Translations under genes and position numbers: made by a program
The notes under the pieces: model-generated
Databases searched by the model: none
Told to the model about the DNA's origin: nothing
What the model saw: only the letters and a program-made list of their open reading frames with translations
Assembly: GCF_003991155.1 (NCBI RefSeq)
Contig: NZ_CP031293.1
Length of the DNA: 64,000 nucleotides
Direction: 5' to 3' (one strand)
Source of the DNA: Escherichia coli
GTDB lineage: Bacteria > Pseudomonadota > Gammaproteobacteria > Enterobacterales > Enterobacteriaceae
In this document: positions 2,014 through 50,094 of the stretch, piece after piece
Layout of the letters: every line of letters starts with the position of its first letter
Position numbering within the stretch: position 1 is the stretch's first letter

Positions 2014-2016
2014 TTC

Positions 2017-2940: not shown

Positions 2941-3050
2941 TTTTCCCTCTGCATACTGTTTTGTCGTTTATGTATGCAGGCATGATAGCAAAAATGGCGA
3001 GGATGGCTCTGTTTGCGCCACGCCGATTTTTCTTAGCCCAGACTGGTGAG

Positions 3051-4689: not shown

Positions 4690-4810
4690 TGCTGGCGCGA
4701 ATATCGCGGATGCGTTCGAGGACAGAAGAACCGACAGGCGGATTCTTCAGCCGCTCATCGTCCATCACAAAACCTTTGACCAGGTATTCCTGAAGCCGAT
4801 TGAATATTGA
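4690..4810 (-). pseudogene. Fragment of a RhuM-family (virulence protein RhuM-like) gene
   Basis: Minus-strand translation ...NRLQEYLVKGFVMDDERLKNPPVGSSVLERIRDIRASMRRV contains the LERIRDIRAS motif remembered from RhuM-family proteins; no intact ORF. Confidence 0.35.
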
Positions 4811-4872
4811 GCAGTAGAAAATATCTGGATTGACAGTATTACAAGGGATTGGAGAACGTCAGAAGAGGCATT

Positions 4873-4897
4873 TTGGCGGAAGATCACAGGAGTCGAA
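4873..4897. repeat. attR-like direct repeat: partial copy of selC 3' end (TTGGCGGAAGATCACAGGAGTCGAA)
   Basis: Exact 25-bp match to 49999..50023 (3' end of selC); additional AGAAGAGG shared just upstream. Confidence 0.8.
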
Positions 4898-5032
4898 TAT
4901 GAGAGTTAATGTTTTGATTTTAAATGATTAATACGTGTTGGATAAATGAGTAACCCCCATAAGAACCCCCAAATGACTTTGCGTAAGGGAATGAGGCTAA
5001 AATACACAATCGAATCAATTCTTAGAGCTTTA

Positions 5033-5878
5033 TTATGAAGGTAACACTCCCGGATAGTGTTTCGCAATAATCTCATTAAGTCTGTCAACCAGTTCTGGTT
5101 TCCTGAACGTGATGTGCGCGGAGCCCTTCTTAAAGTATCTGATGCTGAACATCTCATCTTCATAGTCCTCTTTACCCTGAACTGAGTGGATGTGATCATC
5201 CAGACGAATAGTGATGTTTTCCCGGTTGTCGGGGATCGGTTTGCCGCTGAACAGGTGTAGCATTCTTTCCAGATCGGCAAGTCGATCTGCCTGTTGCCCG
5301 GTGATAAGATGAAACCCCCACCGGTCCCACCTCACCAGGTTGTTGACGATAATTTTACTGCCAAATTTACAGGGCGAGTTGGTTTTGTAATCCCAGCCCA
5401 GTCCTCTGAAAACGTTGATCACCCCTCGCTCAAACACCTCATCCTTATTCTGGTGCAGTTGTTCAAATGTGCTCAGAATGTTCGCTTCATTGATTTTCGG
5501 AAAATTATCATATTCCAGTGACCGGTACCATGTATCACGGGCCTGTGCATCCATTAAGGAAAGCATCCCTGAACGTTGCATCAAGTTTCGCCAGATTTCA
5601 CGGTCAAGGTTCCGGGTGATGGCTTTCATTGCGGTTTCCGGTTTTTCCATCAGCCAGCAACCGCAGCGAAAATCCTGTTTCATCGCCCAGTCCAGGGCGG
5701 TTTTACCTCCAATACTTTCTGTCAGTACTGAGATTTCTGCCAGTTGCCGGATAAGTGTGTCGATTTGCAGCAGCGCACTCTTTCGTACAGCCAGAATGTG
5801 GCGGATACTGGTTGAGCAGATAACGTCCGTATGCCCGTTGACCAGTTCCGGGCGGGAGATTGTGATATCTGACATCAT
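5033..5878 (-). CDS. Conserved island-end protein, probably DUF4942 family
   Basis: 281-aa ORF at the integrase-distal island end downstream of the CbtA module; family assignment from memory. Confidence 0.55.
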   Translation of the reverse strand: MMSDITISRPELVNGHTDVICSTSIRHILAVRKSALLQIDTLIRQLAEISVLTESIGGKTALDWAMKQDFRCGCWLMEKPETAMKAITRNLDREIWRNLMQRSGMLSLMDAQARDTWYRSLEYDNFPKINEANILSTFEQLHQNKDEVFERGVINVFRGLGWDYKTNSPCKFGSKIIVNNLVRWDRWGFHLITGQQADRLADLERMLHLFSGKPIPDNRENITIRLDDHIHSVQGKEDYEDEMFSIRYFKKGSAHITFRKPELVDRLNEIIAKHYPGVLPS

Positions 5879-5890
5879 CGTTTTTCCTTT

Positions 5891-5930
5891 TGGTTTATAA
5901 ACGAAAACGCCAGCCCTGTTCAGGCTGGCG
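5891..5930 (-). terminator. Rho-independent terminator-like hairpin
   Basis: Stem CGCCAGCC/GGCTGGCG (5908-5930) followed on the minus strand by TTTTCGTTT. Confidence 0.5.
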
Positions 5931-5959
5931 TCAGTGGAATGAAGTCTGGTGAGTGAGAT

Positions 5960-6202
5960 TCACCGGTTCTGGTGCAGAAGCTGCAGTTGGCGCAGGGTAT
6001 GGATATCCTCCCTCGCCTGTTCAATACAGGACAACAGTGCTGCCGAATCCGTTTTATCCTCATTGTTGTCAAAGATAATTCCGGATTCGCAGTCGATATT
6101 GTCCTGCAGCCACGCAATCAGAATATCCAGTGCGGTTTCCGTGGTTAATGATTTCATGTTGCTCCTGGTTACCAGTTGAAAGTGGGTAAACCCGGCAGGC
6201 AT
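5960..6202 (-). CDS. Small YeeW-like protein
   Basis: 80-aa ORF (probable start at internal Met, ~6157) downstream of the cbtA-like toxin; resembles YeeW family. Confidence 0.4.
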   Translation of the reverse strand: MPAGFTHFQLVTRSNMKSLTTETALDILIAWLQDNIDCESGIIFDNNEDKTDSAALLSCIEQAREDIHTLRQLQLLHQNR

Positions 6203-6657
6203 TCAGCGCTGGCATCCAGATGAATGAGACTGACGCCATAACGTCGGGTAAGTGTGATAACCAGACGACGGAACGTTTTTGACAGCCCCAGGCGTTTAAG
6301 CCGCAGAACCGGATATGACCACGCATCGGTACGTAACAGATATCCGCTACCTGTGAAATGAATCCATTCTGATTCACCGAAGTCACTGGTCTGGTGTGAC
6401 AGCGAGTACAGCCAGGCGTTGTCCGTTTCCGTGATATGTGCGGTACTGCAGCGTATACCGGTCAGGGCAGCAAATGGTGGCATGCAGTCTGTTGAGGCCC
6501 GGTCAGATGCATCAACAACACGAAGGGAGTGGCCATTATCACAGACCACGTTAATCAGTTCAGCGAGATTAACACCATCGACGTCAACGACAATGCGTCC
6601 CATGTTCAGTGCCTGCACGTTAATGCTGTCGGCTTCCAGCGTCAGGGCCAGTTTCAT
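6169..6657 (-). CDS. Hypothetical protein, possibly DUF5983 family
   Basis: 162-aa ORF whose start overlaps the toxin stop (ATGA coupling). Confidence 0.5.
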
Positions 6658-7031
6658 TGTTTCGCCTCCGGATGTTTCCCCTGGGTAATGTTATTTACCG
6701 TTCTGTAGTTATCGCGGGTCATCAGGCCGGTTGCCCTGCGAGCCCGGAGAATATCAATACTGTTTATTAACTGAGAGCGGGTACAGGCGCTGAATCCCGG
6801 CTGGTCGGTACGTATCAGTGCGTATTTTTCAACGAGAAAGTTCACCGCATCACACAGTGAAATGCCAGCTTCAATATGCTGCTCAATCACACGTTCATCG
6901 GCGAACGGTGTGTCATTCAGTGTGAGGCCATAGTGCTGGTCCAGCAACCGGGACAGCAGTGTCTGCCAGATGGTGACGGGAGACGGGCAGCGAGATACCT
7001 CCCGTACATGTGTGTCGGATAATGTTTTCAT
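6654..7031 (-). CDS. Type IV toxin, CbtA/YeeV/YkfI family
   Basis: 125 aa; near-identical in long stretches to remembered YeeV (…[50 protein letters not shown]…). Confidence 0.85.
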
Positions 7032-7077
7032 CTTAAGTTCTCTGTAACTGGTAGTGCTAAAGGTGAGAGCTTCGGGG

Positions 7078-7452
7078 TTATGAGGTGGTTGCGGGTGCTG
7101 GTGTCGGATAAACAGTCAGATAAACGTAACCACAGGAGCCGAGGGTGTCGGCTTCGCAGGTCAGCCCTTTTGCATACAGCGTGACGGTATGCTGATGTCG
7201 GGGATTCAGTTCACCGCTGGTGAGCATGAGTTCCAGTTGTTTCATCAGCAGCGGAAAGGCCTGGTCCAGATGGTATGCATCTGCGTCGCTGAAGCGGCCT
7301 CTGATACCCGCGCGGTCGGCAAGGTAATGCAGGTGGTTACCCTCCTGCACCAGACGGGCGCCAAAACAGGGCCTCACTGTGCAGGGAAGCCCCCACCAGG
7401 GGCGGTCGTGATTGTCGTCGGGATGAGTTATCCCGGAGAGTTTGTCTGACAC
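7078..7452 (-). CDS. Type IV antitoxin, CbeA/YeeU/YfjZ family
   Basis: 124 aa; [43 protein letters not shown] matches YeeU. Confidence 0.85.
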
Positions 7453-7614
7453 GATAAAATCCTCTCTGAAAAGTGGTTAAGAATGGTTTAACGATGACAG
7501 GTCAGCCGGCGCGCTGACCGGTTTCGGTGAAGATGTATGCATTGATGAGAATGGCCTCATCCACAGCGGCGTCTGAGGTCATCTGGTCGTACTCGTTTCC
7601 CGGGTGACGGAACA

Positions 7615-7836
7615 TCAGTTCAGGGTGACACTCATCAGCCGGACATACGGGCCAAAACTGTCCTTACGGCGTTCTGCAAACACAGCCAGCACACCGGGAA
7701 TATCCTGCACTTCACGACCGGTATACGCTTCAGTGCCACCGTGCCAGCGGTACTTACCTGTGCAGAACGGAAAAAGACGGGATGCAGGATGCTGTTGGTG
7801 AATACGCATGGCTTCACCACGGGTGATGATTCTCAT
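7615..7836 (-). CDS. YeeT/YkfH-like protein (DUF987)
   Basis: 73-aa ORF in the conserved position between the RadC-like gene and the antitoxin. Confidence 0.55.
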   Translation of the reverse strand: MRIITRGEAMRIHQQHPASRLFPFCTGKYRWHGGTEAYTGREVQDIPGVLAVFAERRKDSFGPYVRLMSVTLN

Positions 7837-7898
7837 GATGTGATACCTCTGAAGACAGAAGATAAAAGTGAAAACAGGTGTGATGTGGTTGTGACGGG

Positions 7899-8375
7899 TT
7901 AAAGCAGACCATGTTCGGCAAAGGAGAATACCTGGCTGCCACCGACTATCAGATGGTCCGGCACCCGGATATCCACCAGGGCCAGCGCCTGAACCAGACG
8001 TTCCGTAATAAGCCGGTCTGCCTTACTGGGTGTGACTTCACCGGACGGATGATTGTGCGCCAGCACCACGGCAGCGGCATTGTGGTACAGGGCGCGTTTA
8101 ATCACCTCCCGGGGATGAACTTCCGTGCGGTTGATGGTGCCGGTGAAGAGGGTTTCACCGGCAATCAGCTGATTCTGGTTGTTCAGATACAGCACCCGGA
8201 ACTCTTCACGCTCCAGTCCCGCCATGTTCAGAATCAGCCATTCTCGTGCCGCACGGGTGGAGGTGAAGGCCACGCCGGGTTCATGAAGATGGCGGTCCAG
8301 GGTTTTCAGGGCCCGTTGAATGAGGCTGCGCTCACCGGGCGTCATTTCTCCGGGCAGAAAGGAAATCTGTTGCAT
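7899..8375 (-). CDS. RadC-like JAB-domain protein (YeeS/YfjY/YkfG family)
   Basis: 158 aa; HNHPSGEVTPSKADRLITERL matches the JAMM/RadC motif. Confidence 0.8.
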   Translation of the reverse strand: MQQISFLPGEMTPGERSLIQRALKTLDRHLHEPGVAFTSTRAAREWLILNMAGLEREEFRVLYLNNQNQLIAGETLFTGTINRTEVHPREVIKRALYHNAAAVVLAHNHPSGEVTPSKADRLITERLVQALALVDIRVPDHLIVGGSQVFSFAEHGLL

Positions 8376-8389
8376 TGTTCCGGCCCCTT

Positions 8390-8869
8390 TCAGTCAATGA
8401 TGCGCATAATGGCGCTGCATTCCGGATGCTGCAGGGCGTAATCCCGCAGCCGGTAATAATGGACCGTCATGGCATAACATTCCGTACGACAGGCATGATG
8501 GCTGTACGTCATCAGACAGGCGGCAATACCGGCAGCTTCCGGACTCATTTCAGCGCGGTTACCGTTCATGGCATTGAACAGTACCCATGTTTCGTCATCA
8601 TCGTCATCCGGTTCAGGTGCCATAAATGCGCCACCGTTGTTCAGGGTGTACAGATTCCAGATGCCCCCGCAGTAGTCTTCGCACAGACGGTCCATCCAGC
8701 CGAAGACACGGGGCTCCAGGGTCACCCACTGTGGAATGAGGCCAAAATGCTGCGGCCAGAAGCTGATACGTTGTTCATCAGGGACGGGAGTAGCAACCAG
8801 TTGGGGCTGGTTATTCCCTGGTGCTGTGGCTGAAGAAAGAGCAGTTGTGTTCTGAGAAACGATTTTCAT
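8390..8869 (-). CDS. Antirestriction protein, KlcA/ArdB-like (YfjX/YeeR-position)
   Basis: ORF 8390..8941 trimmed to Met25 (MKIVSQ...) with an upstream AAGGAT ribosome-binding site; acidic DDDDDE tract. Confidence 0.65.
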   Translation of the reverse strand: MKIVSQNTTALSSATAPGNNQPQLVATPVPDEQRISFWPQHFGLIPQWVTLEPRVFGWMDRLCEDYCGGIWNLYTLNNGGAFMAPEPDDDDDETWVLFNAMNGNRAEMSPEAAGIAACLMTYSHHACRTECYAMTVHYYRLRDYALQHPECSAIMRIID

Positions 8870-9134
8870 GAGTGAAATCCTTACAATGTGTATAAATGAG
8901 AGGAAATAAAGGCCGGGGGCTGACAACATCACGTTCATCACTGACCGTGAGACCCGGCAATATCAGGGATGAATGATATTCGGCTGAAATTCCGGACAGC
9001 CGTACGCGTAACCGTTCCGGTCACAGACGGATGGCCAGAAGATGCCATTGCCTGTACTCAGTCTGCACAGACTGAGTTCTCCGGGGCGTCGGGTGATTCT
9101 GGTGCCTGAATCACGCCTTCAGGGACAGATTGCA

Positions 9135-9953
9135 TCAGCGCAGGCTCTCCAGTAGCGTTTCTGCCATCACCCACAATGCGCGATTGAGCTTAATGTCGGT
9201 GTCGATGCTGTGAATGGCACGGGTGTGGATACGTTTTCCTCTGGCACTGCGACCGGAAATTCCGCCTTTCAGCATATTCTCCTGGATGGTCTGATAAGTA
9301 CTCCACAGGTCCTTACCGTAATCCTCCCGGCGTCGTGGCGTCAGAATGTCGGTAGTGGTGACGGGCTGATGTTCATCACCATAACGGTAAGTCAGCGCCG
9401 CCTGTGCCAGCGCCTGGCGTGCCGGTGGCGGCAGGACCAGCGACTGCATGGCATCACGCTTTTCCTCAATCCGGTCAAACACGCCCACCACTTCGTAAGC
9501 ACCTTCTATGACCCTGTCCACCACGTTTCCCCGGTGTGGCACCCGGACTTCTCCCAGCGACTGACCGCAGACCAGGCCATTGGTACAAATGGCACGAAAA
9601 TATCCGGGTAACATCTGGTAGCTGGATGAACCGTCATGGGAGTTGAGCAGAATAATTTCAGGCACATGCTGACCGGTTATCTGTCCGGCCCGCCGCAGAC
9701 GCAGCATATGTTTGGTATATTCCCGGCGGCTCTGGTCGCGCACACGGGTCTGGCAGGCGAAGAACGGCTGAAAGCCTTCCCGCTGCAGATTTTCCAGGAC
9801 GGTGATGGTGGGAATGTACGCATACCGTTCACTGCGGGAGGTGTGCCGGTCTTCTCCAAAAATACTCGGGACGTGGTACATCAGTTCTTCGCGTGTCAGT
9901 GGGCGCTCCCGACGGATCTGATTTACATGACCAAAACGACTGGCTAATTGCAT
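9135..9953 (-). CDS. DUF932-family protein (YfjQ-like)
   Basis: 272 aa; size, position and sequence resemble YfjQ of CP4-57. Confidence 0.65.
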   Translation of the reverse strand: MQLASRFGHVNQIRRERPLTREELMYHVPSIFGEDRHTSRSERYAYIPTITVLENLQREGFQPFFACQTRVRDQSRREYTKHMLRLRRAGQITGQHVPEIILLNSHDGSSSYQMLPGYFRAICTNGLVCGQSLGEVRVPHRGNVVDRVIEGAYEVVGVFDRIEEKRDAMQSLVLPPPARQALAQAALTYRYGDEHQPVTTTDILTPRRREDYGKDLWSTYQTIQENMLKGGISGRSARGKRIHTRAIHSIDTDIKLNRALWVMAETLLESLR

Positions 9954-9979
9954 ACTTTGCTCCTTATGAATGAATTAGC

Positions 9980-10021
9980 GGTATAAACGAAAAGGCCGCG
10001 TCTCCCGGAGAAGACGCGGCC
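9980..10021 (-). terminator. Rho-independent terminator-like hairpin
   Basis: Stem GGCCGCGTCT/AGACGCGGCC followed on the minus strand by TTTTCGTTTATA; same TATAAACGAAAA motif as the hairpin at 5891-5930. Confidence 0.5.
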
Positions 10022-10042
10022 TGATGGATGAAATGAAGACGT

Positions 10043-10276
10043 TTATTGCCTGAGAATTCCCTCACTGGCGAGGTACGAATTTAGCTGTTTTCCGGCGTCA
10101 GACTCAAAATTCCAGCACCGCCAGCGTAGTTGCCCTTCGGCATTGCGGATAACCAGCAGGAAATGCGTTCCATGGTCATCTTCAATAAGCACATTGCGGT
10201 AAGCTGTTGTGGCAGCCATTGCCTGTTTGCGTGAGAAAGGGCCTTCGGGCAATAAAACAGGGTGACAGTCCGACAT
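10043..10276 (-). CDS. Small hypothetical protein (77 aa)
   Basis: ORF sits in the operon-like minus-strand array and is followed by a terminator hairpin. Confidence 0.4.
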
Positions 10277-10281
10277 ACCGG

Positions 10282-10959
10282 CTATTTTCCGATAAATTCA
10301 ACGCTGGCACTGGTGGCATTACCGTCAGCACCAACCGTGACGGTCACTTTGTCGTACGCACGGTCTTCAGGATTGAATACTTCAAACTCAACCTTATTGC
10401 CTTTTACTTCGTAAGAGCCAAAATCAGCGGTTTCTGTTGTTTCCTCGTCATATTCCCGGGCGTATGCCTGCCGGGCAGCCTGCAGGACGGAGTCTTTATT
10501 AATAGTGGTCGTCTGTTTCGGGGAAAAACCGGCAAGTGATGTGACAAATTTCGGACAGACCTTCAGCATATCACCGCGGGTGAATTCCATTCGTACACCA
10601 AATGCCTGTAAAACGGACACATCACGCTCTGCTATGGAGTGAACGGCTTTTTTGACCATTTCCGGCGCCTGTCCGATTTCCACCTCAACAGCCCTGAATC
10701 CCGTCTGCTGATTACACATTTGTGATGTGGGGATCAGGTTACCGTTAATACTGATACGGCTGCCCAGGAGCGTCTGTACGCCATTCGGGCATCCCTGCAT
10801 CAGGCCGGTAATACCAATCGTGCCATTTTTCAGCATTACCAGCGCCTGACCATCTTCCGTCATGGTCTGACACCAGCCGTTTTTGACAGCCCAGTTGCCG
10901 GCGGAGGCGGAGAATGATGCCACAGTGAACAGCAGGGGAAAAAGAGCTCTGGTATTCAT
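10282..10959 (-). CDS. Secreted hypothetical protein (signal peptide, ~225 aa)
   Basis: ORF 10282..11064 trimmed to the internal Met preceding [20 protein letters not shown] (typical signal peptide). Confidence 0.5.
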
Positions 10960-11106
10960 GACTGACCTCTGAAATGAACGTACGGTGTTATTGATAATGA
11001 TGGAAGGTATGCAGTGACTGTTCAGGGAATGACGTAGCCGTATATTTAGTTTTCTGTTCAACATATTGTCTCCATACCTGTCGGGACGGCTTTGGCAGGC
11101 CGGCGA

Positions 11107-11787
11107 TCACAGGTTAAAGGTGTTGATAAGTTTATGGATGAAAGAGAAATGTGGCAGGGCGGAGATAAAACGCTCTTCAGCGACCAGACTGTGGATGTGG
11201 CCTCTCCGTTCAAACCGTTCTGATGTCAGGCTGACTGATTTGATATCTGCCAGAGGAAAGACCTGCAGTTTTCCCTTCTGTAACGCGATCAGATACCAGC
11301 TACCGCTGTAATAAATGAGCCGGCAGGGCTCCAGTGACGGATACCATCGCTCAGTCATCAGAGAGATGTGGATACACTGTCTTATTGCCAGGATGAGTTG
11401 CGAGAAACACTCGGGGAACGTTGCAGTGATATTCGGCGCCGGTAGCCAGATAAGGCAGGGAGAGGGCTCCTGGTTGTCGGTAAGACAGGTTATCAGTCGT
11501 CCGTTCCGGAGCGGAAGTATCCGTGCGATCCCGGTATTCTGTATAAAAGAAAGCATTTCAGGGATCGCACCTGGGCTGCTCTGTCGTCTGAGGCTGTACC
11601 TGCCATTTCTGTACTCTAAATCCAGGTGAACCAGACGCTGATGAAAATCGCGCTGTAAAGTACGTTCTGTAACGCCAAATTCATCTGACAGTGTTTTTAG
11701 TGACAGAGATTCTCCGGCCATCAGTCGGCTGATAATGAGTGATAAGCGAACCGCCAGGCGATCATGCCGGGAACGATTATCAGACAT
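11107..11787 (-). CDS. WYL-domain transcriptional regulator (YfjR-like, DeoR-type HTH)
   Basis: 226 aa; N-terminal HTH (LKTLSDEFGVTERTLQRDF); position next to the YfjP-like GTPase. Confidence 0.65.
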   Translation of the reverse strand: MSDNRSRHDRLAVRLSLIISRLMAGESLSLKTLSDEFGVTERTLQRDFHQRLVHLDLEYRNGRYSLRRQSSPGAIPEMLSFIQNTGIARILPLRNGRLITCLTDNQEPSPCLIWLPAPNITATFPECFSQLILAIRQCIHISLMTERWYPSLEPCRLIYYSGSWYLIALQKGKLQVFPLADIKSVSLTSERFERRGHIHSLVAEERFISALPHFSFIHKLINTFNL

Positions 11788-11989
11788 AGATGTGCACTCC
11801 GTAAGAAAACATCTTTTATTTCATGATGTTATTATGCCTCATGGTGTTGAAAGGATGTGTCGTATCTGAATAATCAGGAATAAAATGCAGCAGAAAAAAT
11901 ATTCCTTTAATTATCTGATTTTTAATGATGATTTCATAAAAAGAAGAATACTCATTAATCCAGCGACACATCCTGTCGGCGTGAGTGTG

Positions 11990-12874
11990 TCAGAACAGAC
12001 GATCCCACAGTGTTTCCAGCAGGCGGATAATGCGGTCCCGGGCTTTACGCAGAAGCTGTAACATCCAGACCGGAAAAGTGAACCGGGCAACGGCGTCGTC
12101 AAAACTTTTCCCGATGGCGTCACCAAAAGTCTGTTGTGCGTGTTTCTGGGCCTGTTCAGAGCGGTTTTCCCCCCGGATATGTGAATAAACCGCACTGGTT
12201 GCCTGCGGTGGCAGGGCGTGGATCATCAGCGACACAAACGCCGGAAGATTCCAGCCGACAGGCGCAGCAACGGGGAGTACCGGAAATGATGACGGGAACA
12301 GGGTTGCCACCCTGGCTGTAACAGTTGCCAGTGAGAGTTCCTGGTGACGGGATGGGCATTTTTCTGTGGCATTCCATTCTTCAGCAGGAAACACGCGATC
12401 GGCATGGCTGAGAACAAACAGAAAACGCGAGGGATCTGCACCTTCATTCAGTAAAAACTGATGCATGGCAATATCGGCAGCATACGCACGTTCATCAGCC
12501 CGCAGGATCCAGATAATCAGATCCAGTTCCGGCAGTAACTGACGGTAAAGCTCCCGGTATTCCTGATCATGCTGCGGTGTCTCACCAATGCCGGGCAGAT
12601 CGACCAGCGTCATTCTGCGTTCACCAATCTGCAGGGTGAGGCGATGAGCCTGGCGGGTGCAGCCGTTCAGGGGATGCGTGGCGCAGATACGGGACTGAAA
12701 AATGGCATTACACAGACTGCTTTTGCCGGAGCCGGATTTACCCATAATGCCAATCACGGGCTCGTAATGAATAACACCGTGGAGATGTTCAAGGATTTTC
12801 TGGCGAATTTCTTCAGGAAGAAACGTCAGATATGATTTCACTTGCGCGGAGAGGGAAGAATTGCTGAATGGCAT
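11990..12874 (-). CDS. YfjP/YkfA-like GTPase
   Basis: 294 aa; P-loop GIMGKSGSGKSS and DLPG motif. Confidence 0.8.
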   Translation of the reverse strand: MPFSNSSLSAQVKSYLTFLPEEIRQKILEHLHGVIHYEPVIGIMGKSGSGKSSLCNAIFQSRICATHPLNGCTRQAHRLTLQIGERRMTLVDLPGIGETPQHDQEYRELYRQLLPELDLIIWILRADERAYAADIAMHQFLLNEGADPSRFLFVLSHADRVFPAEEWNATEKCPSRHQELSLATVTARVATLFPSSFPVLPVAAPVGWNLPAFVSLMIHALPPQATSAVYSHIRGENRSEQAQKHAQQTFGDAIGKSFDDAVARFTFPVWMLQLLRKARDRIIRLLETLWDRLF

Positions 12875-12974
12875 ACCGGTATCCTGTTGATTTCACTGAA
12901 CCGGATCACACTAATCCGGTTTATCATTCAGGTAATATGGGTGTGAAAATTTTTCCATTGACGGGAAGAAGAGT

Positions 12975-14198
12975 ATGGCTAAAAACAAAGGTATCTGTCG
13001 GAATAAAAAATGCAGTAATCCTGTTTCAGAATTTGATGAGGCAAATGCCTTAAGGTTATGCGATGATCATTATAAGCTATGGAAGCGAAATAAAGAGAAT
13101 CGTCGGGTCAGGAATATTTGTCGTATAATTAGTAGATATGACAAAAGTCTGGACTGGGAGATATTTTATAGAGTAAGAGATGCTGCAAAAAATAAAACGG
13201 GAAAGAGAATTATTGAGGACGCAAAAATATTACATCAATGGCGTGCTTCAAAGCAAGTAAGAAAAAGTTTTCACAAGGGTGTGCTTCGGTCACGGGAATG
13301 GCTTAATACACAGGAGTTACTGAGCAGAAAACATATATCTGTTACAGGTGAACTATTTAAATTTTACATAAAAGATATTATCAGATTATATTGCTATAAG
13401 TTTCTCTACAGCAGAGAATATCTTAATGAAAACGCATACAAAAAACGATATCAGAGAGATATTCACCCCAGAAAAGTTAATGTTCCGATACTGCAACTTG
13501 AAGTTGCATGGATAAATAATAATTGCCGCTCAAGTGATTCAAGCACTGATATTATTATCCTTCCGAGGATGATAAGAAGAATGGTTGTATTTAATTATAC
13601 GAAGATAAATAAACAATTAGAGAAAGTGTTGGGGGGGATAGCACGAAAACAAACCTCAGAAAGGAATAAAGGCGGTCTCTATACCAGAATAAAAAAAGAA
13701 AGTGACTTTCTTTCTATGGATAGATTTATGGTGGAAATAGAAAATATCATAAGACCTGAAAGGTTTCCTACATCAATTTATCCAGTCTTTTCACATTCAT
13801 TTATTGAACGAGAGCTTCCGCTACTGAATCTTGCCCGATCACAGTATAAAAGAGCAATAAGTAAAAGAGTGGCGAATTCAATTTTTTATACTTTGCAAAA
13901 AACTAACGTGGCATTATGGCTATATCTTGAAATGTTTGCTCTGGTGGCATTCATTAAACTGTATACAGGAAAAGGTTTTGAATTCATAAAGAACATGTGT
14001 GTATTTATCGATTATGAGAAAGGGATAATAAAATCCACACATGAAGAACTGCTGGGTGAAATTAAGCGTAACATTCAAGTGAATTTGAAGGTGAATCCTG
14101 ATAATTTTCCAGAGTTAATAGACATATACAATTCATGCTTTAGTGAAAATATATTGTCATATGATATTCAGGATGGTAATTTTAAATGGCGCTCATGA
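12975..14198 (+). CDS. Orphan hypothetical protein, 407 aa, AT-rich, lysine/arginine-rich with N-terminal Cys/His cluster
   Basis: Long uninterrupted ORF in strongly AT-rich DNA, divergent from the GTPase gene; no family recognised. Confidence 0.6.
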   Translation: MAKNKGICRNKKCSNPVSEFDEANALRLCDDHYKLWKRNKENRRVRNICRIISRYDKSLDWEIFYRVRDAAKNKTGKRIIEDAKILHQWRASKQVRKSFHKGVLRSREWLNTQELLSRKHISVTGELFKFYIKDIIRLYCYKFLYSREYLNENAYKKRYQRDIHPRKVNVPILQLEVAWINNNCRSSDSSTDIIILPRMIRRMVVFNYTKINKQLEKVLGGIARKQTSERNKGGLYTRIKKESDFLSMDRFMVEIENIIRPERFPTSIYPVFSHSFIERELPLLNLARSQYKRAISKRVANSIFYTLQKTNVALWLYLEMFALVAFIKLYTGKGFEFIKNMCVFIDYEKGIIKSTHEELLGEIKRNIQVNLKVNPDNFPELIDIYNSCFSENILSYDIQDGNFKWRS

Positions 14199-28978: not shown

Positions 28979-29398
28979 AGTGTCCCCTAGTGTTGGCGCA
29001 AAAAAGACCAAAACGGCAGTGGCAATGGCATTCTCCAGCGTTTAAACGGAGAGCCGGATGCGTTGAAAGGTGCTGCTCCGGTTCGGAGAGGAGATACTGG
29101 GAAATAGTTCGACTACCCCCTATCTCTTACTCTACTCTGGACAGGTTAACGATGAGATACCTCACAGTAATATTTGCTCTGTTCGCAAGAAAGCTAGTGG
29201 GATGGGTAATGTTGTTGGACTGAATCGCCACGGATAATCAGGCATTTCTGAGTTGTTTCAAGAAGGCGGCATTATTTGTGCTGCTCGTATCCCGGTCATC
29301 AGTGAACCGGTGAACGTAAATCAGCCGGAGGCACGATTTGGGCAAAAGAGATTTCCTGACAGGCAAGAAGCCAGCGAATGGCTGGCTTCCTGAAGGAT

Positions 29399-30646
29399 TT
29401 AGCCAAATTTAGGTAACACGTTAAAGACGTTACCGAACCAGCATAAAATTACGGTTATACCAAAGAGAATGACAATCGCCGGAATAAGATTGCCGCCCCA
29501 GACTGTGAACATCTGATTGGGAAATTTCTTGCGGGCTTTGATTGCCAGCACTGCGGGAATAATGACCGCCCAGATGGTGGCGCACAGTCCGGCACCGCCG
29601 ATCCCGTAAATAAAGCCGTTCGGGAAGATCAGATACAACAACGCGGGTGGCAGGAAGGTTAACAGCACGGTTTTGAAACGCCCGGCGTGGGAGTTATCAA
29701 TCTTAAACAGATCCGCCAGATAATCGAACAATCCCAGCGTGACACCAAAGAACGAACTGGCAACAGCTAAGTTAGAGAACACCAGCAGGCAAAACTCGAT
29801 AATCCCATGCTGTTTGGTGCCGAGGAATGATTTCACCAGCGAATCAACGTTGCCGCCTGAGGAGATTATCGCCTTAAAGCTTTCTCGCGGGATATTCCCC
29901 ATCGTGCAATAGAGCCAGAAGAGATAAATCACCAGCGCCAGCAGCGAACCGAAGACCACGCTTTTGATTAGCTTATCTTTGCGTTTTCCATAGCAAATAA
30001 TCAGGCTGGGAATATTGCCGTGGAAACCAAATGACGCCAGACACACCGGCAAAGCCATAAAGATATACGGGAAGTAAGACTTACCCGCAGTGGAGCTGGC
30101 TGCATCGCGCAGAATGGAATAATCGGCCTGGAAGAAGAGAGAGCCAAACACGATCACAAAGGAGATAATCTTCAGCCCGAGGAACAATGAGGTAATACGA
30201 CTGGCGGCTAACGAACTTATCCACAATACGCTGGCAACGAAAATGGCTGTGCAGACTCCGACAATACGTGGATTAGCGTGATAACTCAGATTCATTGATA
30301 TCGTTTCGCTAATGATTGCGCCGTTAGCAGAAATATAGGCATAAGTGAGGATATAGAGAACGAAGGCAACGGTAATACCGCTGATAATGTTCCAGGTGTT
30401 ACCGATTAAATCTTTGGCGATGGTGTTAAAACTGGATCCGACGGGATAGTTTAAATTTGCTTCTAATAACAATAACCCGGAATGAAGCATTGAAAACCAG
30501 GCAATGATAAGGATAAAGGCTCCCCAGAAAAACCAGGCACCGGCAAGATCAACAGGTAAAGCAAACATCCCACCGCCAATTACCGTACCGGCTATAACCA
30601 TAACACCCCAAAATGCAGAGTGTTTTTTTTCAGCTTGTTCAGTCAT
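29399..30646 (-). CDS. tnaB: Low-affinity tryptophan permease TnaB
   Basis: 415 aa; matches E. coli TnaB. Confidence 0.9.
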   Translation of the reverse strand: MTEQAEKKHSAFWGVMVIAGTVIGGGMFALPVDLAGAWFFWGAFILIIAWFSMLHSGLLLLEANLNYPVGSSFNTIAKDLIGNTWNIISGITVAFVLYILTYAYISANGAIISETISMNLSYHANPRIVGVCTAIFVASVLWISSLAASRITSLFLGLKIISFVIVFGSLFFQADYSILRDAASSTAGKSYFPYIFMALPVCLASFGFHGNIPSLIICYGKRKDKLIKSVVFGSLLALVIYLFWLYCTMGNIPRESFKAIISSGGNVDSLVKSFLGTKQHGIIEFCLLVFSNLAVASSFFGVTLGLFDYLADLFKIDNSHAGRFKTVLLTFLPPALLYLIFPNGFIYGIGGAGLCATIWAVIIPAVLAIKARKKFPNQMFTVWGGNLIPAIVILFGITVILCWFGNVFNVLPKFG

Positions 30647-30737
30647 GATGCCACCTTTAGATGAAGGCTATTTTTATTATTGAGGATGTAGGGTAAGAGA
30701 GTGGCTAACATCCTTATAGCCACTCTGAGTGTTTTAA

Positions 30738-32153
30738 TTAAACTTCTTTCAGTTTTGCGGTGAAGTGACGCAATACTTTCGGTTCGTAGGTAAAGGTTAA
30801 CCCTTTAATATTCGCCGCGTTCTCTTTCACATGTTTAAAGGCTTCAATAATGAAGTCCATATGTGTTTGAGTATATGTTGCGCGCGGAATGGTTAAACGC
30901 AGCAGTTCAGCCGGGCATGGCAGTTGTTTACCGGTTTTCGGATCGCGGCCTAACAGGAAAGAGCCAATTTCTACCGCACGGATACCGGCGACTTTATACA
31001 GCTCGCAGGCCAGCGCCTGTGCCGGGAACTGATCTGCCGGGATATGCGGCAGTAGTTTACCGGCATCAACGAATGCCGCGTGACCGCCCGCCTGCTGGCA
31101 GACAACGCCAATCTCTTCCAGGCCATCGACCAGATACTGCACCTGCGCAATACGATAAGCCAGCCAGTCCAGATTCATGCCGTCATACAGACCTACCGCC
31201 AGACGCTCCATAGCGCCGCCTTCCAGGCCGCCATATGTCGGGAAGCCTTCCTGCACCACGCAAAGGGTTCTGCATTCGGTGTACACATCAAAGAAGCTGT
31301 CGTCTTTCATGCACAGCAGGCCGCCCATCGGCACCATCGCATCTTTCTTGGCGGACATCGCCAGCATATCGGCATATTTGTAGGTTTCGCGGGTGATTTG
31401 CTCGATGGTCCAGTCTTTGTATTCTGCTTCACGCTGCTTGATGAAATAGGCGTTTTCGGCAAAGCGTGCGGAGTCCATTACCACCGGAATATCGTATTTC
31501 TTCGCGATGCTGTACATCGCTTTTAAGTTTGCCAGTGAAACCGGCTGACCACCTGCGGAGTTACTGGTGATGGTTGCAACGATATACGGCACGTTATTCG
31601 GGCCAACTTCTTCAATACCGCGTTCTAATCCCTCAAGGTCAAAGTTGCCTTTAAAGTCGTAACGCACGCCCGTATCGAAGGCTTCTTTGATATAGACGTT
31701 ACGCACGGTACAGCCGTTAATCTGGCTATGGCCCTGCGTGGTATCAAAGAAATAGTTAGAGAACGCCACCATTTTGCTGCGATCCAGGCCTTTTTCCTGC
31801 TCGCGTTTTTTAATCAGTACCGGAATATAGATTTGCTCTGCACCACGGCCCTGGTGAGTCGGAATAGTGTATTGATAACCAAAGATATTTTTCACTGACT
31901 CGGCTAACGCGTAGTAGCTGCGGCTGCCGCTGTAAGCTTCGTCGCCGCGCATCATCGCGGCCTGCATACTCTGCGTCACCGCCCCGGTACCGCTGTCGGT
32001 CAGTAAATCGATAAACACATCTTCACTATCCAGCAGGAACGGGTTCATGCCGGCTTTAATAATTGCTTCTTCACGATAAGCGCGAGTGGTACGTTTTACT
32101 GGCTCAATAACACGAATGCGGAACGGTTCAGGGAGATGTTTAAAGTTTTCCAT
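30738..32153 (-). CDS. tnaA: Tryptophanase TnaA
   Basis: ORF 30738..32168 trimmed to [11 protein letters not shown] (471 aa); matches E. coli TnaA. Confidence 0.9.
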
Positions 32154-32359
32154 TACGTAATCCTTCATTTATTTTAAGGACAGAAAATTACGGAGATATT
32201 GCAAATGCAATACCCGATAGTTCGCTAAAATATTTGCAAGAGACATCATTTATAAAAATGAATGATAGTCTTTACAAAAGCAGAAATAAGATATGCCAAA
32301 CAGACAGGTTAGATGGAATTCAATCTATTTGACAAAAATGATGGTTACAGAAAGGCAAG

Positions 32360-32434
32360 TTAAGGGTGGTGTTCAACAATCTTGTTGTCGATATTGAACC
32401 ATTTTGAGGTCACACATATATGTAAGATATTCAT
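32360..32434 (-). CDS. tnaC: tna operon leader peptide TnaC (24 aa)
   Basis: Minus-strand ATG AAT ATC TTA CAT ATA TGT GTG ACC TCA AAA TGG TTC AAT ATC GAC AAC AAG ATT GTT … CCT TAA gives MNILHICVTSKWFNIDNKIV..P with Trp12 and Pro24, ~205 bp upstream of tnaA. Confidence 0.75.
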   Translation of the reverse strand: MNILHICVTSKWFNIDNKIVEHHP

Positions 32435-42514: not shown

Positions 42515-42934
42515 ATGACGACATTGACCCTGAAACAAGCATTGCTTGCAGTAGAGTATGCGCTTGATCTTGCAGTGCAACAATATGCTGGCCGTCCTTT
42601 AAGTGTGGCAGTATGCGATGTTAATGGTGAATTGCTGAGCTTTGCCCGCATGGATAGAGCCAAACTGTTAACTATTGAATTAACGCAGCGTAAAGCACGA
42701 ACCAGTAGTCGTCTGGGCTGTACGACAGCAGCATTCTTACAGCGTCTACAAAAAGAGCAACTTGATATCAGCTATTTTGGAGATCCCCGGTTTACCGCAT
42801 TACCAGGAGGGATCCCTATTCTGGTTAAAGGAAAATGCATTGGTGCTGTTGCTGTGGGGGGATTATCCGCACGAGAAGATCATGATGCGGCACAGGCTGT
42901 CGCAGATAAACTGCTTGAGGAGATGACCAAATGA
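42515..42934 (+). CDS. GlcG/HbpS-like protein (DUF336)
   Basis: 139 aa; …GGIPILVKGKCIGAVAVGG… typical of GlcG-like proteins. Confidence 0.65.
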   Translation: MTTLTLKQALLAVEYALDLAVQQYAGRPLSVAVCDVNGELLSFARMDRAKLLTIELTQRKARTSSRLGCTTAAFLQRLQKEQLDISYFGDPRFTALPGGIPILVKGKCIGAVAVGGLSAREDHDAAQAVADKLLEEMTK

Positions 42935-43581
42935 AAAAAATAGCCATGCTTCACACCAGTTCAGCCACGCTTGCGGTGATGCAACAACTGATAGGCGATA
43001 TCATGCCTGAGGCTGAAGTGATGCATCTGGTTGAGGAGTCTATGATTAAGCAGGTGATGAAAGCGGGCGGTGTTACGCCAGATATCGCCGCACGGATCGC
43101 TGATTACATACGGATCGCTGAAAAAGCCGACTGCGATATTTTCATTACCGCTTGTTCATCAATTGGTACTGCTGTCGAACAGTGTCAATTTATGACTTCA
43201 GTACAACTGGCACGGATTGACTGTGCGATGGTGGATGAAGCAATCAACAAAGGGGAACACATTGCTGTGCTGGCAACGGTGGCCACAACGCTGAAACCGA
43301 CGCTTGATTTTGTCCGGCGAAAAGTTCAGGAAAGTGGAAAACAGCGGATTATTACACCTGTTTTAATGGAAGAAGCCTTCCATGCGTTATTGAATGGTGA
43401 TATGGGAACGCATGACCGCATTGTGAGTGAAGGATTACAAAAGGCCTTTGGGCAGGCAGATGTTATTATGTTAGCGCAGGCATCGATGGCACGGGTGCTG
43501 CAAAATATGCCTGAGCCTCCGGTTCCGGTATTAACATCGCCAGAAAGCGGTATTCGCTGGTTGAAAACATTCGCGAGTTAA
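42931..43581 (+). CDS. Asp/Glu/hydantoin racemase-family enzyme
   Basis: 216 aa; start overlaps GlcG stop; conserved Cys-containing ACSS segment. Confidence 0.6.
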   Translation: MKKIAMLHTSSATLAVMQQLIGDIMPEAEVMHLVEESMIKQVMKAGGVTPDIAARIADYIRIAEKADCDIFITACSSIGTAVEQCQFMTSVQLARIDCAMVDEAINKGEHIAVLATVATTLKPTLDFVRRKVQESGKQRIITPVLMEEAFHALLNGDMGTHDRIVSEGLQKAFGQADVIMLAQASMARVLQNMPEPPVPVLTSPESGIRWLKTFAS

Positions 43582-44101
43582 GTCAGGTATAGTTTCTATA
43601 TTAAAGACGTTTACACATAATGGTGTACAGGCCCATTCAGAAACGGAACTGGGAATTTATTAACGGATAATCCGGAAACGTATTAAATGGCAGAAGGTAA
43701 CTACTTTCTGCCATTTCACAGACAGGATGTACATATTAATCGGCCATGATGGTTGACATAAAAAATGCATCGGCAGTGATGTGGCAAGTTTTTCCCGGAC
43801 AATGTTTTTCTTCATCCCACTTGCAGAAAATATATAATATTATATTTTATATAACATTTTCTAACTCATTGAATACACTTGCAAATCTTCTCATTCTTAC
43901 TTAGAAATATTATTAATTTTAACGTTCTTTGTTGAATGTTTGTTTGGTTACAGCCATCTAATTTTTTAAATGCACAGTATCTGTGGATAACTTTGCGTAA
44001 ACACTGGGGACAGAGCTCGTTGAACCAGAGAAAGCACGCATGAAAACAAAATACTCATTCTTTAACCATTCTGTATAAGATCAGATGTCAGATCTGCTCA
44101 A

Positions 44102-44157
44102 TTCCGCTTTCCCGGTCACTGACTCGCTACGCTCGATCGTTCGGTTGCGGCGAGCGG
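44102..44157. other. ColE1/pBR322-type primosome assembly site (pas/ssi)-like sequence
   Basis: TTCCGCTTTCCCGGTCACTGACTCGCTACGCTCGATCGTTCGGTTGCGGCGAGCGG is ~90% identical to the remembered pBR322 segment TTCCGCTTCCTCGCTCACTGACTCGCTGCGCTCGGTCGTTCGGCTGCGGCGAGCGG. Confidence 0.4.
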
Positions 44158-44455
44158 AGTCTCCTTTCTCAAAATCAGGCTTCGTGCATCTGGTCACAAA
44201 CCCGTATATCAATCATCATTGATGAGAAATTATCTTTATGAGGGCGTTTTTTTGGTTTCAGTTTTGCACGGAACCAGGAGATTTTTGGGAGTTGTTTTAT
44301 GTATGTTGTAAATAAAATTTTAATATTGACATCTACTGTACGTGCATAGAGTACGCCGGTGACCAACGTCAGCATTCCACTGTTCCAGTAACTAATTAAC
44401 GTAAGTGAAGTTATCGAGGAAGCAATACTGGATGGAGAAGTCGTCCTTGAGGTAT

Positions 44456-44737
44456 TCACTTTCCTTTCGTTCTGCCCATTAGTGGACAGCTAACTAGTGG
44501 CAGGACATCGGAGTACAGCACCTTCCCGTTGTTATTTATCAGCACGGCAGCTTTCTGGTTATTGACGAGCACAGTTTTCACGCCGCCGCCAAAGTTGTGG
44601 AAGACTCGCACCAGTGACTCATGGGTATGTTCAGCATCCTGTATGGGGCAGCAAAGAGATAGAAGCGACGTGAGAACCCCCTGCGTATTAGTCGCGAAGT
44701 TAATGCAGCATCGTTGTCTGACCAGTACCCCAGTCAT
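44456..44737 (-). pseudogene. IS21-family IstA transposase fragment
   Basis: …DAEHTHESLVRVFHNFGGGVKTVLVNNQKAAVLINNNGKV… matches the IstA segment …DAEHTYESLVRAFRYFGGCVKTVLVDNQKAAVLKNNNGKV…. Confidence 0.55.
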
Positions 44738-44952
44738 GCTGGAGCTGGTAATCCGGCTGAGTTTTGAAGCGAACCGTTTTCTTCGATTTCCGTCTGGGAA
44801 GTAATCAGACTCAGCACGGACAAAAATTGCAGCGCCCGGATGGCACGGGTAATGGTCAGATTACCGGATGCGGATTAGGTGCCGCGTAGTGAAGCGCGCC
44901 GGATTCAGAGTCGCTAGTATGGTCATACAGCGAAGGAAAGCCGCCAATTTTT

Positions 44953-45225
44953 GTGCCGGACGTGGAATATACAGCGAATGCTGATGTAAAAGGCGCTCGT
45001 AATATTTTAGCTGCGGGACATACTGTGCTTGCCAGGGAAGGGATGGTGCAGTCAGACCACCCGTTGAAGCGAAATGAACCTGAACCATACGACAACCTGA
45101 AAGTAGCAGGAATCCACGCCCTGAAGGACGTGGAGGAAGTCAAATCGATGGTAGGTTGTAGGTTTATGGCAACATCTGCTTCATTAGATACATGTCGATA
45201 TACAGAACATATATCACATTTATGA
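44953..45225 (+). pseudogene. 3' fragment of an IS200/IS605-family tnpB (RNA-guided nuclease) gene
   Basis: …ANADVKGARNILAAGHTVLAREGMVQ… resembles the conserved TnpB C-terminus; no N-terminal part upstream. Confidence 0.4.
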
Positions 45226-47541: not shown

Positions 47542-48038
47542 TAGTGTTTTATGTTCAGATAATGCCCGATGACTTTGTCATGCAGCTCCACCGATTTTGA
47601 AAACGACAGCGACTTCCGTCCCAGCCGTGCCAGGTGCTGCCTCAGATTCAGGTTATGCCGCTCAATTCGCTGCGTATATCGCTTGCTGATTACGTGCAGC
47701 TTTCCCTTCAGGCGGGATTCATACAGCGGCCAGCCATCCGTCATCCATATCACCACGTCAAAGGGTGACAGCAGGCTCATAAGACGCCCCAGCGTCGCCA
47801 TAGTGCGTTCACCGAATACGTGCGCAACAACCGTCTTCCGGAGCCTGTCATACGCGTAAAACAGCCAGCGCTGGCGCGATTTAGCCCCGACGTATCCCCA
47901 CTGTTCGTCCATTTCCGCGCAGACGATGACGTCACTGCCCGGCTGTATGCGCGAGGTTACCGACTGCGGCCTGAGTTTTTTAAATGGCGGAAAATCGTGT
48001 TGAGGCCAACGCCCATAATGCGGGCGGTTGCCCGGCAT
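47535..48038 (-). CDS. insB: IS1 transposase InsB
   Basis: 167 aa matching IS1 InsB. Confidence 0.9.
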
Positions 48039-48232
48039 CCAACGCCATTCATGGCCATATCAATGATTTTCTGGTGCGTACCGGGTTGAGAAGCGGTGTA
48101 AGTGAACTGCAGTTGCCATGTTTTACGGCAATGAGAGCAGAGATAGCGCTGATGTCCGGCGGTGCTTTTGCCGTTACGCACCACTCCGTCAGTAGCTGAA
48201 CAGGAGGGACAGCTGATAGAAACAGAAGCCAC
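47957..48232 (-). CDS. insA: IS1 InsA
   Basis: 91 aa matching IS1 InsA (zinc finger CPSC…CSHC). Confidence 0.9.
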
Positions 48233-48522
48233 TGGAGCACCTCAAAAACACCATCATACACTAAATCAGTAAGTTGGCAGCATCACCGAAATATAGAAAC
48301 GCGGAAAGGAGAAAAAAACTTCACCAGCCCATGTCTTAAGTTCTGTCAGTATGGCTACAGCCTGTTTGCTGAGTGGCACAAGGTGTGGTGTTCGAATCTT
48401 GGTTCCCCAATGAGAGTTCAGGCGGTGTGGGCAAATAAAAAAGAAAACATAAATAAAACCATCCGACCGTTGGTGGGGCTGGATGGTTATTCATTATTTC
48501 TATGTCACTGAACTTTCATTCA

Positions 48523-49704
48523 TCAGATCTGCTCAGAAAGTGAATCAATGTAGTCAGCATACCACTGCATCATTTCACGGCGACCATCCAGATACTGGGC
48601 ATGATTATAGGTACCTCTGATAGCGTTTTTATCCATATGAGCTAACTGCATTTCAATCCAGGCAGAATTAAAGCCCTGTTCGTGCAGAATTGTACTCATG
48701 GTGTGTCTGAAACCGTGCCCTGTGAGTCTTCCCTTATATCCTAGTAATTCAATGACTTGGTTTATGCTTTCCTTACTAATTGGTTTGCGAGGATCGTTCC
48801 TACCGATAAAGACCAGAGGATGATGTTTTGAGATTGGTTCAAGTTGCTTAAATAGCGCAATGACCTGCTCAGAGAGCGGCACAATATGAGGTCGCTTCAT
48901 CTTCATTACTTCTGCCGGGATCTCCCATAATTTTGTCTCAAAATCGATATCCTCCCAGCGTGCGAAACGCAATTCTTGAGTTCGTACACCAGTTAGCATA
49001 ATGATTTGAGTGGCTGTCTTAGTGATAATACTTCCGGTATAACCCGCCAGATCATTGAGGAAGTGGGGAAGTTCATTAGCAGTAAGAAAGGGAAAATGTA
49101 CTTTTTTCGGTGTAGCTAAAGCACTGGCAAGATCGGGAGCAGGGTTGTAGTTAGCCCGACCAGTAACAATTGCATAGCGGAACACCTCTCCACAGCGCTG
49201 GCGGACCTTACGCATTTTCTCCAGAGCTCCACGTTTTTCCATTTTACGCAATGCTTCCAGTAACTCCATTGGTTTGATTTCAGCAATAGGGCGTTTGCCA
49301 ATATAGGGAAAAATATCTTTTTCAAAGGTATCAATGATTTCATCACGATAGCGTAATGACCACCGATCGGCTTTTGACTGATGCCATTCTCGAGCAACGG
49401 CCTCAAATGTGTTTTTCAAACTCATTTGCAGCGCGATTTTTTCTTCTTTTTTTGTCTCACCCGGATCGCATCCTGCAGCGAGGATTTTCCTAGCTTCACT
49501 GCGTTTTTCGCGAGCGTCGGCTAGAGTTACATCGGGGTATACGCCAATAGAAAGCATCTTTTCTTTGCCAGCAAAGCGGTACTTCATACGCCAATATTTA
49601 GAACCATTAGTGTTAATGAGTAGATACATACCGCCACCATCAGACAGCTTATAGGGCTTTTCTTTTGGTTTTGCGGTTTTCACTTTAATATCAGTTAACG
49701 CCAT
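48523..49704 (-). CDS. P4-type tyrosine integrase (site-specific recombinase)
   Basis: 393 aa; catalytic HGFRHT and C-terminal Tyr region; immediately adjacent to selC. Confidence 0.9.
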   Translation of the reverse strand: MALTDIKVKTAKPKEKPYKLSDGGGMYLLINTNGSKYWRMKYRFAGKEKMLSIGVYPDVTLADAREKRSEARKILAAGCDPGETKKEEKIALQMSLKNTFEAVAREWHQSKADRWSLRYRDEIIDTFEKDIFPYIGKRPIAEIKPMELLEALRKMEKRGALEKMRKVRQRCGEVFRYAIVTGRANYNPAPDLASALATPKKVHFPFLTANELPHFLNDLAGYTGSIITKTATQIIMLTGVRTQELRFARWEDIDFETKLWEIPAEVMKMKRPHIVPLSEQVIALFKQLEPISKHHPLVFIGRNDPRKPISKESINQVIELLGYKGRLTGHGFRHTMSTILHEQGFNSAWIEMQLAHMDKNAIRGTYNHAQYLDGRREMMQWYADYIDSLSEQI

Positions 49705-49998: not shown

Positions 49999-50023
49999 TT
50001 GGCGGAAGATCACAGGAGTCGAA
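49999..50023. repeat. attL core: 25-bp direct repeat overlapping the 3' end of selC
   Basis: Identical to 4873..4897. Confidence 0.8.
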
Positions 50024-50094
50024 CCTGCCCGGGACCGCTGGCGGCCCCAACTGGATTTGAAGTCCAGCCGCCTCACCGGAGACGACGATCTTCC
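50000..50094 (-). tRNA. selC: tRNA-Sec (selenocysteine tRNA)
   Basis: Reverse complement matches the 95-nt E. coli selC sequence GGAAGATCGTCGTCTCCGGTGAGGCGGCTGGACTTCAAATCCAGTTGGGGCCGCCAGCGGTCCCGGGCAGGTTCGACTCCTGTGATCTTCCGCCA. Confidence 0.95.

Follow-up and report, generated by a model that had tools for sequence, protein, structure and literature searches.

A ColE1-like primosome assembly site in a selC island of Escherichia coli, probably part of plasmid replication-region debris

The sequence described here lies at positions 44102-44157 of a window of 64,000 nucleotides of Escherichia coli DNA, the window being the whole stretch that was analysed. A composite island of approximately 45 kb extends in it from setC, a gene of the core genome, to the tRNA-Sec gene selC (50000-50094, minus strand), with a tyrosine integrase encoded at 47746-48927. 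The annotation of the island was taken from one genome, NZ_CP041996.1, in which the window position equals the record position minus 64001, and it contains no relaxase, oriT or Rep. The core sequence sits inside this selC island, in agreement with the original prediction, between a metabolic operon on the left and a cluster of pseudogene fragments on the right. The operon ends with an aspartate/glutamate racemase gene (42931-43581), and beyond this gene a hairpin resembling a terminator is formed at 43685-43716 by an inverted repeat of 15 bp that is nearly perfect (AAATGGCAGAAGGTA / TACTTTCTGCCATTT). It is probably the terminator of the operon and marks the left limit of the plasmid-like debris.

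The core at 44102-44157, TTCCGCTTTCCCGGTCACTGACTCGCTACGCTCGATCGTTCGGTTGCGGCGAGCGG, resembles the primosome assembly site (pas) of ColE1, known as ssiA or n'-pas, the strand that bears AAGCGG being the minus strand. Alignment with natural ColE1 (NC_001371, approximately 1313-1370, opposite strand) gave 50 identical positions out of 56 (89.3%). We take the pBR322 and p15A sequences to match the core equally well (50/56), and the classical boundaries of the site in pBR322 are presumably close to 2350-2414. The 19-mer CACTGACTCGCTNCGCTCG occurs a single time in the 64-kb window when three mismatches are permitted, against 0.02 occurrences expected, and BLAST retrieved more than 5000 plasmid matches to the core region, with E-values that go down to 9e-26 for a 95-bp core region and to 1e-47 for the 217-bp module described below. 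The position of the matching segment in ColE1 can be reconstructed from RNAI, which Rfam locates at 645-749 of NC_001371. RNAII begins opposite the end of RNAI and the ColE1 origin lies some 555 nt beyond. Because of this offset the origin was placed near 1198, and the segment that matches the core is then situated about 115-170 nt downstream of the inferred origin, on the strand displaced by leading-strand synthesis. The hexamer AAGCGG is said, after Imber, Low and Ray in 1983, to be conserved on the active strand of such sites. The sequence AAGCGGAA, located on the minus strand at 44102-44109, is invariant in 11 of 11 aligned copies. Taken together with the ColE1 homology, the motif leads to the expectation that the active strand of the window copy would be the minus strand. 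In the literature on ColE1, ssiA or n'-pas occupies that same place downstream of the origin (PMC3167613, PMC3640518). There, PriA recognises a fork-like structure adopted by the displaced strand, PriB and DnaT are recruited, DnaB-DnaC is loaded and DnaG synthesises the primer (PMC3167613, PMC5778457). The claim that about 56 bp are approximately 90% identical to the region downstream of the pBR322/ColE1 origin was thus borne out at the ssiA position, and the alignments confirmed that the homology to the ColE1/pBR322 primosome assembly site is real and well beyond chance.

By its sequence, the core belongs to the family of ColE1, pMB1 and p15A sites (ssiA, n'-pas or rriA), with which it shares 89% identity over 56 bp, the AAGCGG motif on the homologous strand and a CGCTCG/CGAGCG stem, but it lacks the context of the family, which is a nearby origin and a location on the displaced strand. 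No RNAI or RNAII was detected in the window at the Rfam gathering thresholds, nor at E<=5 between 43000 and 46500, as had been predicted, and the Rfam matches near the site correspond to chance-level snoRNAs and sRNAs only. Unlike the ColE1 site, the window copy has neither an RNAII/RNAI origin nor rop beside it, its flanks are non-homologous, a DnaA box lies on the other side and five substitutions are private to it. The similarity also outruns the core: 44084-44178 is matched at 86-88% and 43962-44178 at about 80% (79-81%), and the best plasmid partners over these intervals are IncX1-type plasmids, not ColE1-like ones. Once the flanks are counted, the identity with ColE1 drops to 55%, whereas IncX1-type plasmids hold 71-88%.

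The interval 43962-44178 corresponds to a 217-bp module that comprises a DnaA box, a spacer, the pas core and TCTCCTTTCTCAAAA, and that is homologous to the outer flank of IncX1-type origins. BLAST found it in 958 plasmids with 79-81% identity over query positions 3-219, the closest sampled plasmid reaching approximately 81% over the module and 88% over its central 95 bp. Clear homology to plasmid pE001 starts at about 43962 (TTTTTTAAATGCACAG), and TCTCCTTTCTCAAAA is conserved directly after the pas core, as a 20-bp extension to the right. The perfect DnaA box TTATCCACA (43982-43990, minus strand) is located around 110 bp to the left of the core within an invariant block, CTGTGGATAACTTTGCG, at 43981-43997. 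Further to the left, an A+T-rich spacer (43912-43981) leads from the DnaA box to an iteron relic and, in the alignment, stands where gamma-type origins have their A+T-rich segment. The relic itself (43883-43911, plus strand), AAATCTTCTCATTCTTACTTAGAAATATT, consists of one 22-bp iteron of the IncX1 type and the start of the next, and 25 of its 29 positions agree with the iteron array of pE001. Its local alignment score of 38 was reached by none of 300 shuffles (20 +/- 2.7, maximum 32), it is the top match of the iteron position weight matrix on both strands of the whole 64-kb window, and it lies at the distance and in the orientation expected from IncX1-type origins. The repeat search of the window locus revealed no iteron array, of which pE001 has 6-7 copies, and an initiator of the pir or Rep_3 type was found neither in the annotation of the island nor among the open reading frames. 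In the window as a whole there are four perfect DnaA boxes (575, 23224, 30217 and 43982) against 0.57 expected, a number that was reached in 0 of 100 shuffles.

The context of the module was read in seven plasmids, namely pE001, pECTm80, pFORC51, pMRY16-002_1, pKKo009_1, the 34-kb plasmid of FDAARGOS_1291 and pNORD8_6. In all seven, the module is upstream of the gene for the replication initiator, at a distance of a few hundred bp. A toxin-antitoxin pair follows beyond the module in six of them, stbD/relE in five and a RelE/ParE toxin with a DNA-binding protein in the FDAARGOS_1291 plasmid, while pNORD8_6, whose initiator is of the RepB type, carries DnaJ-domain genes in its place. The order of elements in IncX1-type plasmids is pir/Rep, 22-bp iterons, A+T-rich stretch, DnaA box, pas-like core and stbDE. 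Among the IncX1-type contexts read, 22-bp iterons were demonstrated only in pE001, where 6-7 of them and an A+T-rich stretch fill the interval from the initiator gene to the module. In pN17S914-3 the iterons are quite different and the module is the same, and because of this pairing the module can be viewed as a cassette for host factors that is independent of the specificity of the initiator. The window resembles the origin flank of pE001, pECTm80 and pFORC51 in its 79-81% identity over 217 bp, the DnaA-box block, the 20 bp after the core and the iteron relic. It differs from it in lacking pir, the iteron array and stbDE, and in having IncFII and insertion sequence debris on the right. The gamma origin of R6K (IncX2) shows the same succession of iterons, A+T-rich segment and DnaA box, with TGTGGACAAC at the same position, but the homology goes no further than the DnaA box, beyond which a pas-like core and a conserved spacer are both missing. 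R6K was rejected as a carrier of the module, the layout alone being common to both.

The sequences to the right of the module come from other elements. The segment 44236-44316 (minus strand) is about 80% identical to IncFII/IncFIC sequence found in the plasmid loci L009 and L010 at 404-484 bp past the stop codon of repA, and its counterpart lies just beyond oriR, the DnaA box of which is visible in the alignment. An IS21-family istA fragment (44354-44787, minus strand) follows, with approximately 73% identity to the istA of ISEc62, a weak match to the NCBIfam family transpos_IS21 and a PGAP annotation as IS21 transposase in some genomes. Next to it, 31 codons from the interior of an IncFII RepA gene (44782-44874, minus strand) match positions 99-128 of the 275 of TIGR03474 (incFII_RepA) with an E-value of 2.9e-8 and are annotated by PGAP as a pseudogene. 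Another PGAP pseudogene, a fragment of an IS200/IS605-type TnpB (InsQ) gene at 44920-45146 on the plus strand, is about 76% identical to TnpB genes of plasmids. A 66-codon open reading frame at 44175-44375 (minus strand) has no family in Pfam or NCBIfam. Since the RepA and post-oriR pieces are collinear on the minus strand and separated by 466 bp, mostly IS21, compared with approximately 845 bp in an intact replicon, they plausibly derive from one IncFII replicon broken by insertion sequence activity. The collinear orientation of the 31-codon RepA fragment and the 80-bp piece is shared with the repA-oriR region of R1/R100-type plasmids. In contrast to an IncFII replicon, the window has no oriR and no CopA, for which Rfam gave no match at E<=5 between 43000 and 46500, most of repA is missing, an IS21 fragment intervenes, and the IncF replicons examined have no pas. 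The 80-bp block just downstream of oriR is itself conserved in IncFII/IncFIC plasmids (GGTTTCAGTTYTGCRCGGAACC...; 3001-3081 in L009 and 3001-3082 in L010), and could represent the primase-dependent G site known from R1. When phage origins of the G4 type were sought with blastn, the block matched no microvirus, and the G-site idea is unsupported at the sensitivity of that program.

On the basis of these features, the region between 43883 and 44874 is best explained, with considerable probability, as debris of plasmid replication regions embedded in the selC island of the E. coli chromosome. It would consist of a remnant of approximately 300 bp from the flank of an IncX1-type (R6K gamma-like) origin, formed by the iteron relic, the A+T-rich stretch, the DnaA box, a 110-bp spacer and the pas core, adjoined by a broken IncFII replicon represented by the post-oriR piece, the IS21 fragment and the RepA fragment. 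Plasmids that combine IncF and IncX1 replicons are common among the matches to the module, and a multi-replicon plasmid of this kind would be a simple source of such mixed debris. Neither a functional IncX1-type origin nor a functional IncFII origin is to be read from the segment, which lacks the iteron array, the initiator, oriR and CopA alike. All the fragments share 73-81% identity with their counterparts in E. coli plasmids, which suggests an old or unsampled donor lineage. The exact pas variant of the window had no match in 100,044 species genomes, no sampled plasmid carries its private substitutions and no plasmid was found with the adjacent metabolic operon.

A remnant of a genuine ColE1-family plasmid, which would have integrated and then lost the RNAII/RNAI origin, is the source that the name ColE1-type suggests. 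The 50 of 56 positions shared with ColE1 ssiA speak for it, as does the observation that most plasmid matches to the core alone belong to small mobilizable ColE1-like plasmids in which the site adjoins rop. Against this, the identity that falls to 55% with the flanks and stays at 71-88% with IncX1-type plasmids, the 217-bp homology that places a DnaA box on the opposite side and is specific to iteron plasmids, the presence of an IncX1-type iteron relic and the absence of RNAI, RNAII and rop make a ColE1-family source quite improbable. This is the part of the original prediction that did not hold, because the flanks outside the 56-bp core are unalignable to ColE1 and align instead to the flank of an IncX1-type iteron origin, with an IncFII remnant adjoining. 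Since the DnaA box, the right-hand extension and the iteron relic match an IncX1-type origin and the IncFII remnant lies next to them, the donor appears to have been an iteron or multi-replicon plasmid carrying a homologue of the ColE1 site, rather than a ColE1 plasmid.

The expectation that the segment is a natural plasmid remnant and not vector sequence was, on the other hand, upheld. Vector contamination, an assembly chimera or chance similarity would have in their favour the resemblance to the pBR322/pUC backbone and nothing further. The 501 bp from 43900 to 44400 are 100% identical in 21 independent complete E. coli chromosomes (21 of 5426 genomes contain them), with the selC island annotated in one of these genomes, the similarity is limited to 56 bp at 89% and leaves out the vector origin, with no origin, RNAI or rop accompanying it, and E-values between 1e-23 and 1e-47 exclude chance. 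An extended near-100% match to a vector was not found; exact identity over an extended span is what the original prediction had named as the sign of contamination, and contamination was thereby refuted on the grounds that the prediction itself had set; the probability left for this whole group of explanations is negligible. In complete genomes of E. coli, 2898 of the 2945 places where the pas family occurs are plasmid-borne (98%) and 47 are chromosomal. The selC locus of the window accounts for 21 of these 47 chromosomal places, and the other 26 lie elsewhere.

The proximity of the IncFII pieces raises another explanation, according to which the pas served an IncFII-type or hybrid IncFII/IncX replicon as the lagging-strand primosome site of the unidirectional fork that leaves oriR. 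The order on the minus strand would suit it, given that the RepA fragment, the IS21 sequence and the post-oriR piece are followed, after 78 bp, by the pas with AAGCGG on that strand, and ColE1 has this geometry too, its site being on the displaced strand shortly downstream of the origin. However, a pas is missing from this place in both of the IncF replicons examined, the homology that contains the pas also takes in the IncX1-type DnaA box and iteron relic, and a rearrangement in a multi-replicon plasmid could equally give the adjacency. A role in an IncFII-type replicon is on balance unlikely, and the debris of an IncX1-type origin flank next to a broken IncFII replicon is the preferred reading. 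The ColE1-like geometry of the window pas relative to the IncFII debris may offer a second reading of the reversed orientation seen in the plasmid relatives, described below.

The state of the copy was assessed by aligning the core with its relatives, 11 copies in all from ColE1-like, IncX1-type and other replicons. Forty-seven of the 56 positions are invariant among them and the flanks are unalignable. Among the 11, the window copy stands out as the most diverged, carrying five private substitutions (44110, 44112, 44115, 44136 and 44145 on the plus strand) that fall where the other ten sequences are invariant or nearly so. A hairpin may tentatively be drawn on the minus strand at 44130-44156, with an outer stem of 6 bp (CGCTCG/CGAGCG) and an inner stem of 3 bp. 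In this proposed structure positions 44136 and 44145 are partners, and their substitutions turn a G-C pair into A-T, and the neighbouring inner pair is T-A, C-G or C·A among plasmids; 92.9% of the cells of the alignment are paired and two pairs change on both sides. The chance of obtaining one compensatory pair among six random hits was estimated at approximately 3%. RNAalifold preferred another fold, in which two of the window substitutions break pairs, and the core proved too conserved for it to report any covariation. The folding energy was no better than that of shuffled sequences for the window, ColE1 and IncX1 copies on both strands (Z from -1.65 to +1.0). The evidence for the hairpin is suggestive at best. 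The compensatory pair 44136/44145 would, in this hairpin, point to selection that preserved the structure at some time rather than to pure decay, and the changes at 44110, 44112 and 44115, close to AAGCGG, fit a relaxed constraint.

Whether such a site would be exposed as a single strand depends on its surroundings. The dnaA-dnaN-recF-gyrB cluster occupies record positions 1-6000 on the plus strand and the GC skew is positive throughout the window, and for these reasons the fork from oriC is taken to move rightward through it. The minus strand, which carries AAGCGG and the pas, would then be the leading-strand template and is normally not expected to be exposed. There is no functional origin near the core relative to which it could occupy a displaced-strand position, and in the chromosomal copy nothing would be left to open the duplex. 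As neither an initiator gene nor an iteron array nor a primer RNA is present, and since the strand is the leading-strand template, the pas copy of the window is most likely non-functional and passively inherited with the island. A site that still works, either by loading PriA for replication restart or for initiation at R-loops (of the cSDR type) or by priming the transferred single strand of the excised island, would account for the intact outer stem and AAGCGG, the compensatory nature of two of the private changes and the retention of a perfect DnaA box. The open reading frame at 44175-44375 lies upstream on the minus strand, and transcription in the minus sense could displace the pas strand. 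But the island has no relaxase, oriT or Rep, its pas strand serves the fork as leading-strand template, another three private substitutions alter positions with little or no variation among the other ten copies, the locus occurs in only 21 of 5426 genomes, and no promoter-like site is aimed into the pas, the promoter scan having yielded fewer sites than expected by chance. Continued function is accordingly very unlikely, and the inert, inherited copy is the reading that is retained here.

The plasmid relatives of the module provide information about what the site may do where it is intact. DnaB loaded on the AAGCGG strand of IncX1-type plasmids would move toward the iterons and pir, the opposite of the situation in ColE1. 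By homology with ColE1, the AAGCGG strand of these plasmids, when single-stranded, would form the hairpin and be primed through PriA. The module is found at approximately 5001-5218 in the plasmid locus L006 and 620-834 in L002. Transcription of the relaxase genes proceeds away from oriT, and the leading region runs toward the pas; the distance to the pas is about 1 kb from the nikA oriT (L002) or about 3 kb from taxA (L006). Because of this arrangement, the pas of IncX1 and pN17S914-type plasmids is predicted to be on the transferred strand, which fits a site that primes the complementary strand in the recipient. This suggests that synthesis of the complementary strand after conjugation, rather than vegetative priming of the lagging strand, is what the IncX1-type pas serves. 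An extended proposal would make the DnaA box plus pas a portable host-primosome module shared by ColE1 and IncX1-type plasmids, acting on the transferred strand in the latter, of which the chromosomal copy would still be a competent PriA site that seeds initiation or restart; taken as a whole, this proposal is highly improbable.

The invariance of 47 of 56 positions despite unalignable flanks suggests a strong constraint imposed by recognition through the host PriA. A ColE1-type pas is a constant element in the origin regions of IncX1-type plasmids, where it is turned the other way than in ColE1 with respect to the origin core. Its presence there may be under-described, as no paper in the library searched mentions both IncX and the primosome. 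As important vehicles of resistance genes, IncX plasmids lend some practical interest to their dependence on host factors. For the window itself the finding has little weight, plasmid fragments in genomic islands being ordinary, but it indicates that at least two types of plasmid replicon have left fragments in the selC island, a record that helps to rule out contamination and to reconstruct the history of the island.

Other parts of the window also bear marks of mixed descent. The setC-proximal portion of the island contains a block similar to CP4-57/CP4-44 (5033-14198), with the cbtA/yeeU toxin-antitoxin genes, radC, an antirestriction protein, a DUF932 protein and a GTPase, and because of it the island looks like a composite of several elements. 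A match to a group II intron (29049-29135, plus strand) scores 50.1 bits, over the Rfam gathering score, and adjoins fragments of IS66, melA and bglF. A tryptophanase operon, tnaC-tnaA-tnaB, is located at approximately 29399-32434 on the minus strand between insertion sequence fragments of the selC island, a place other than the tna site of K-12.
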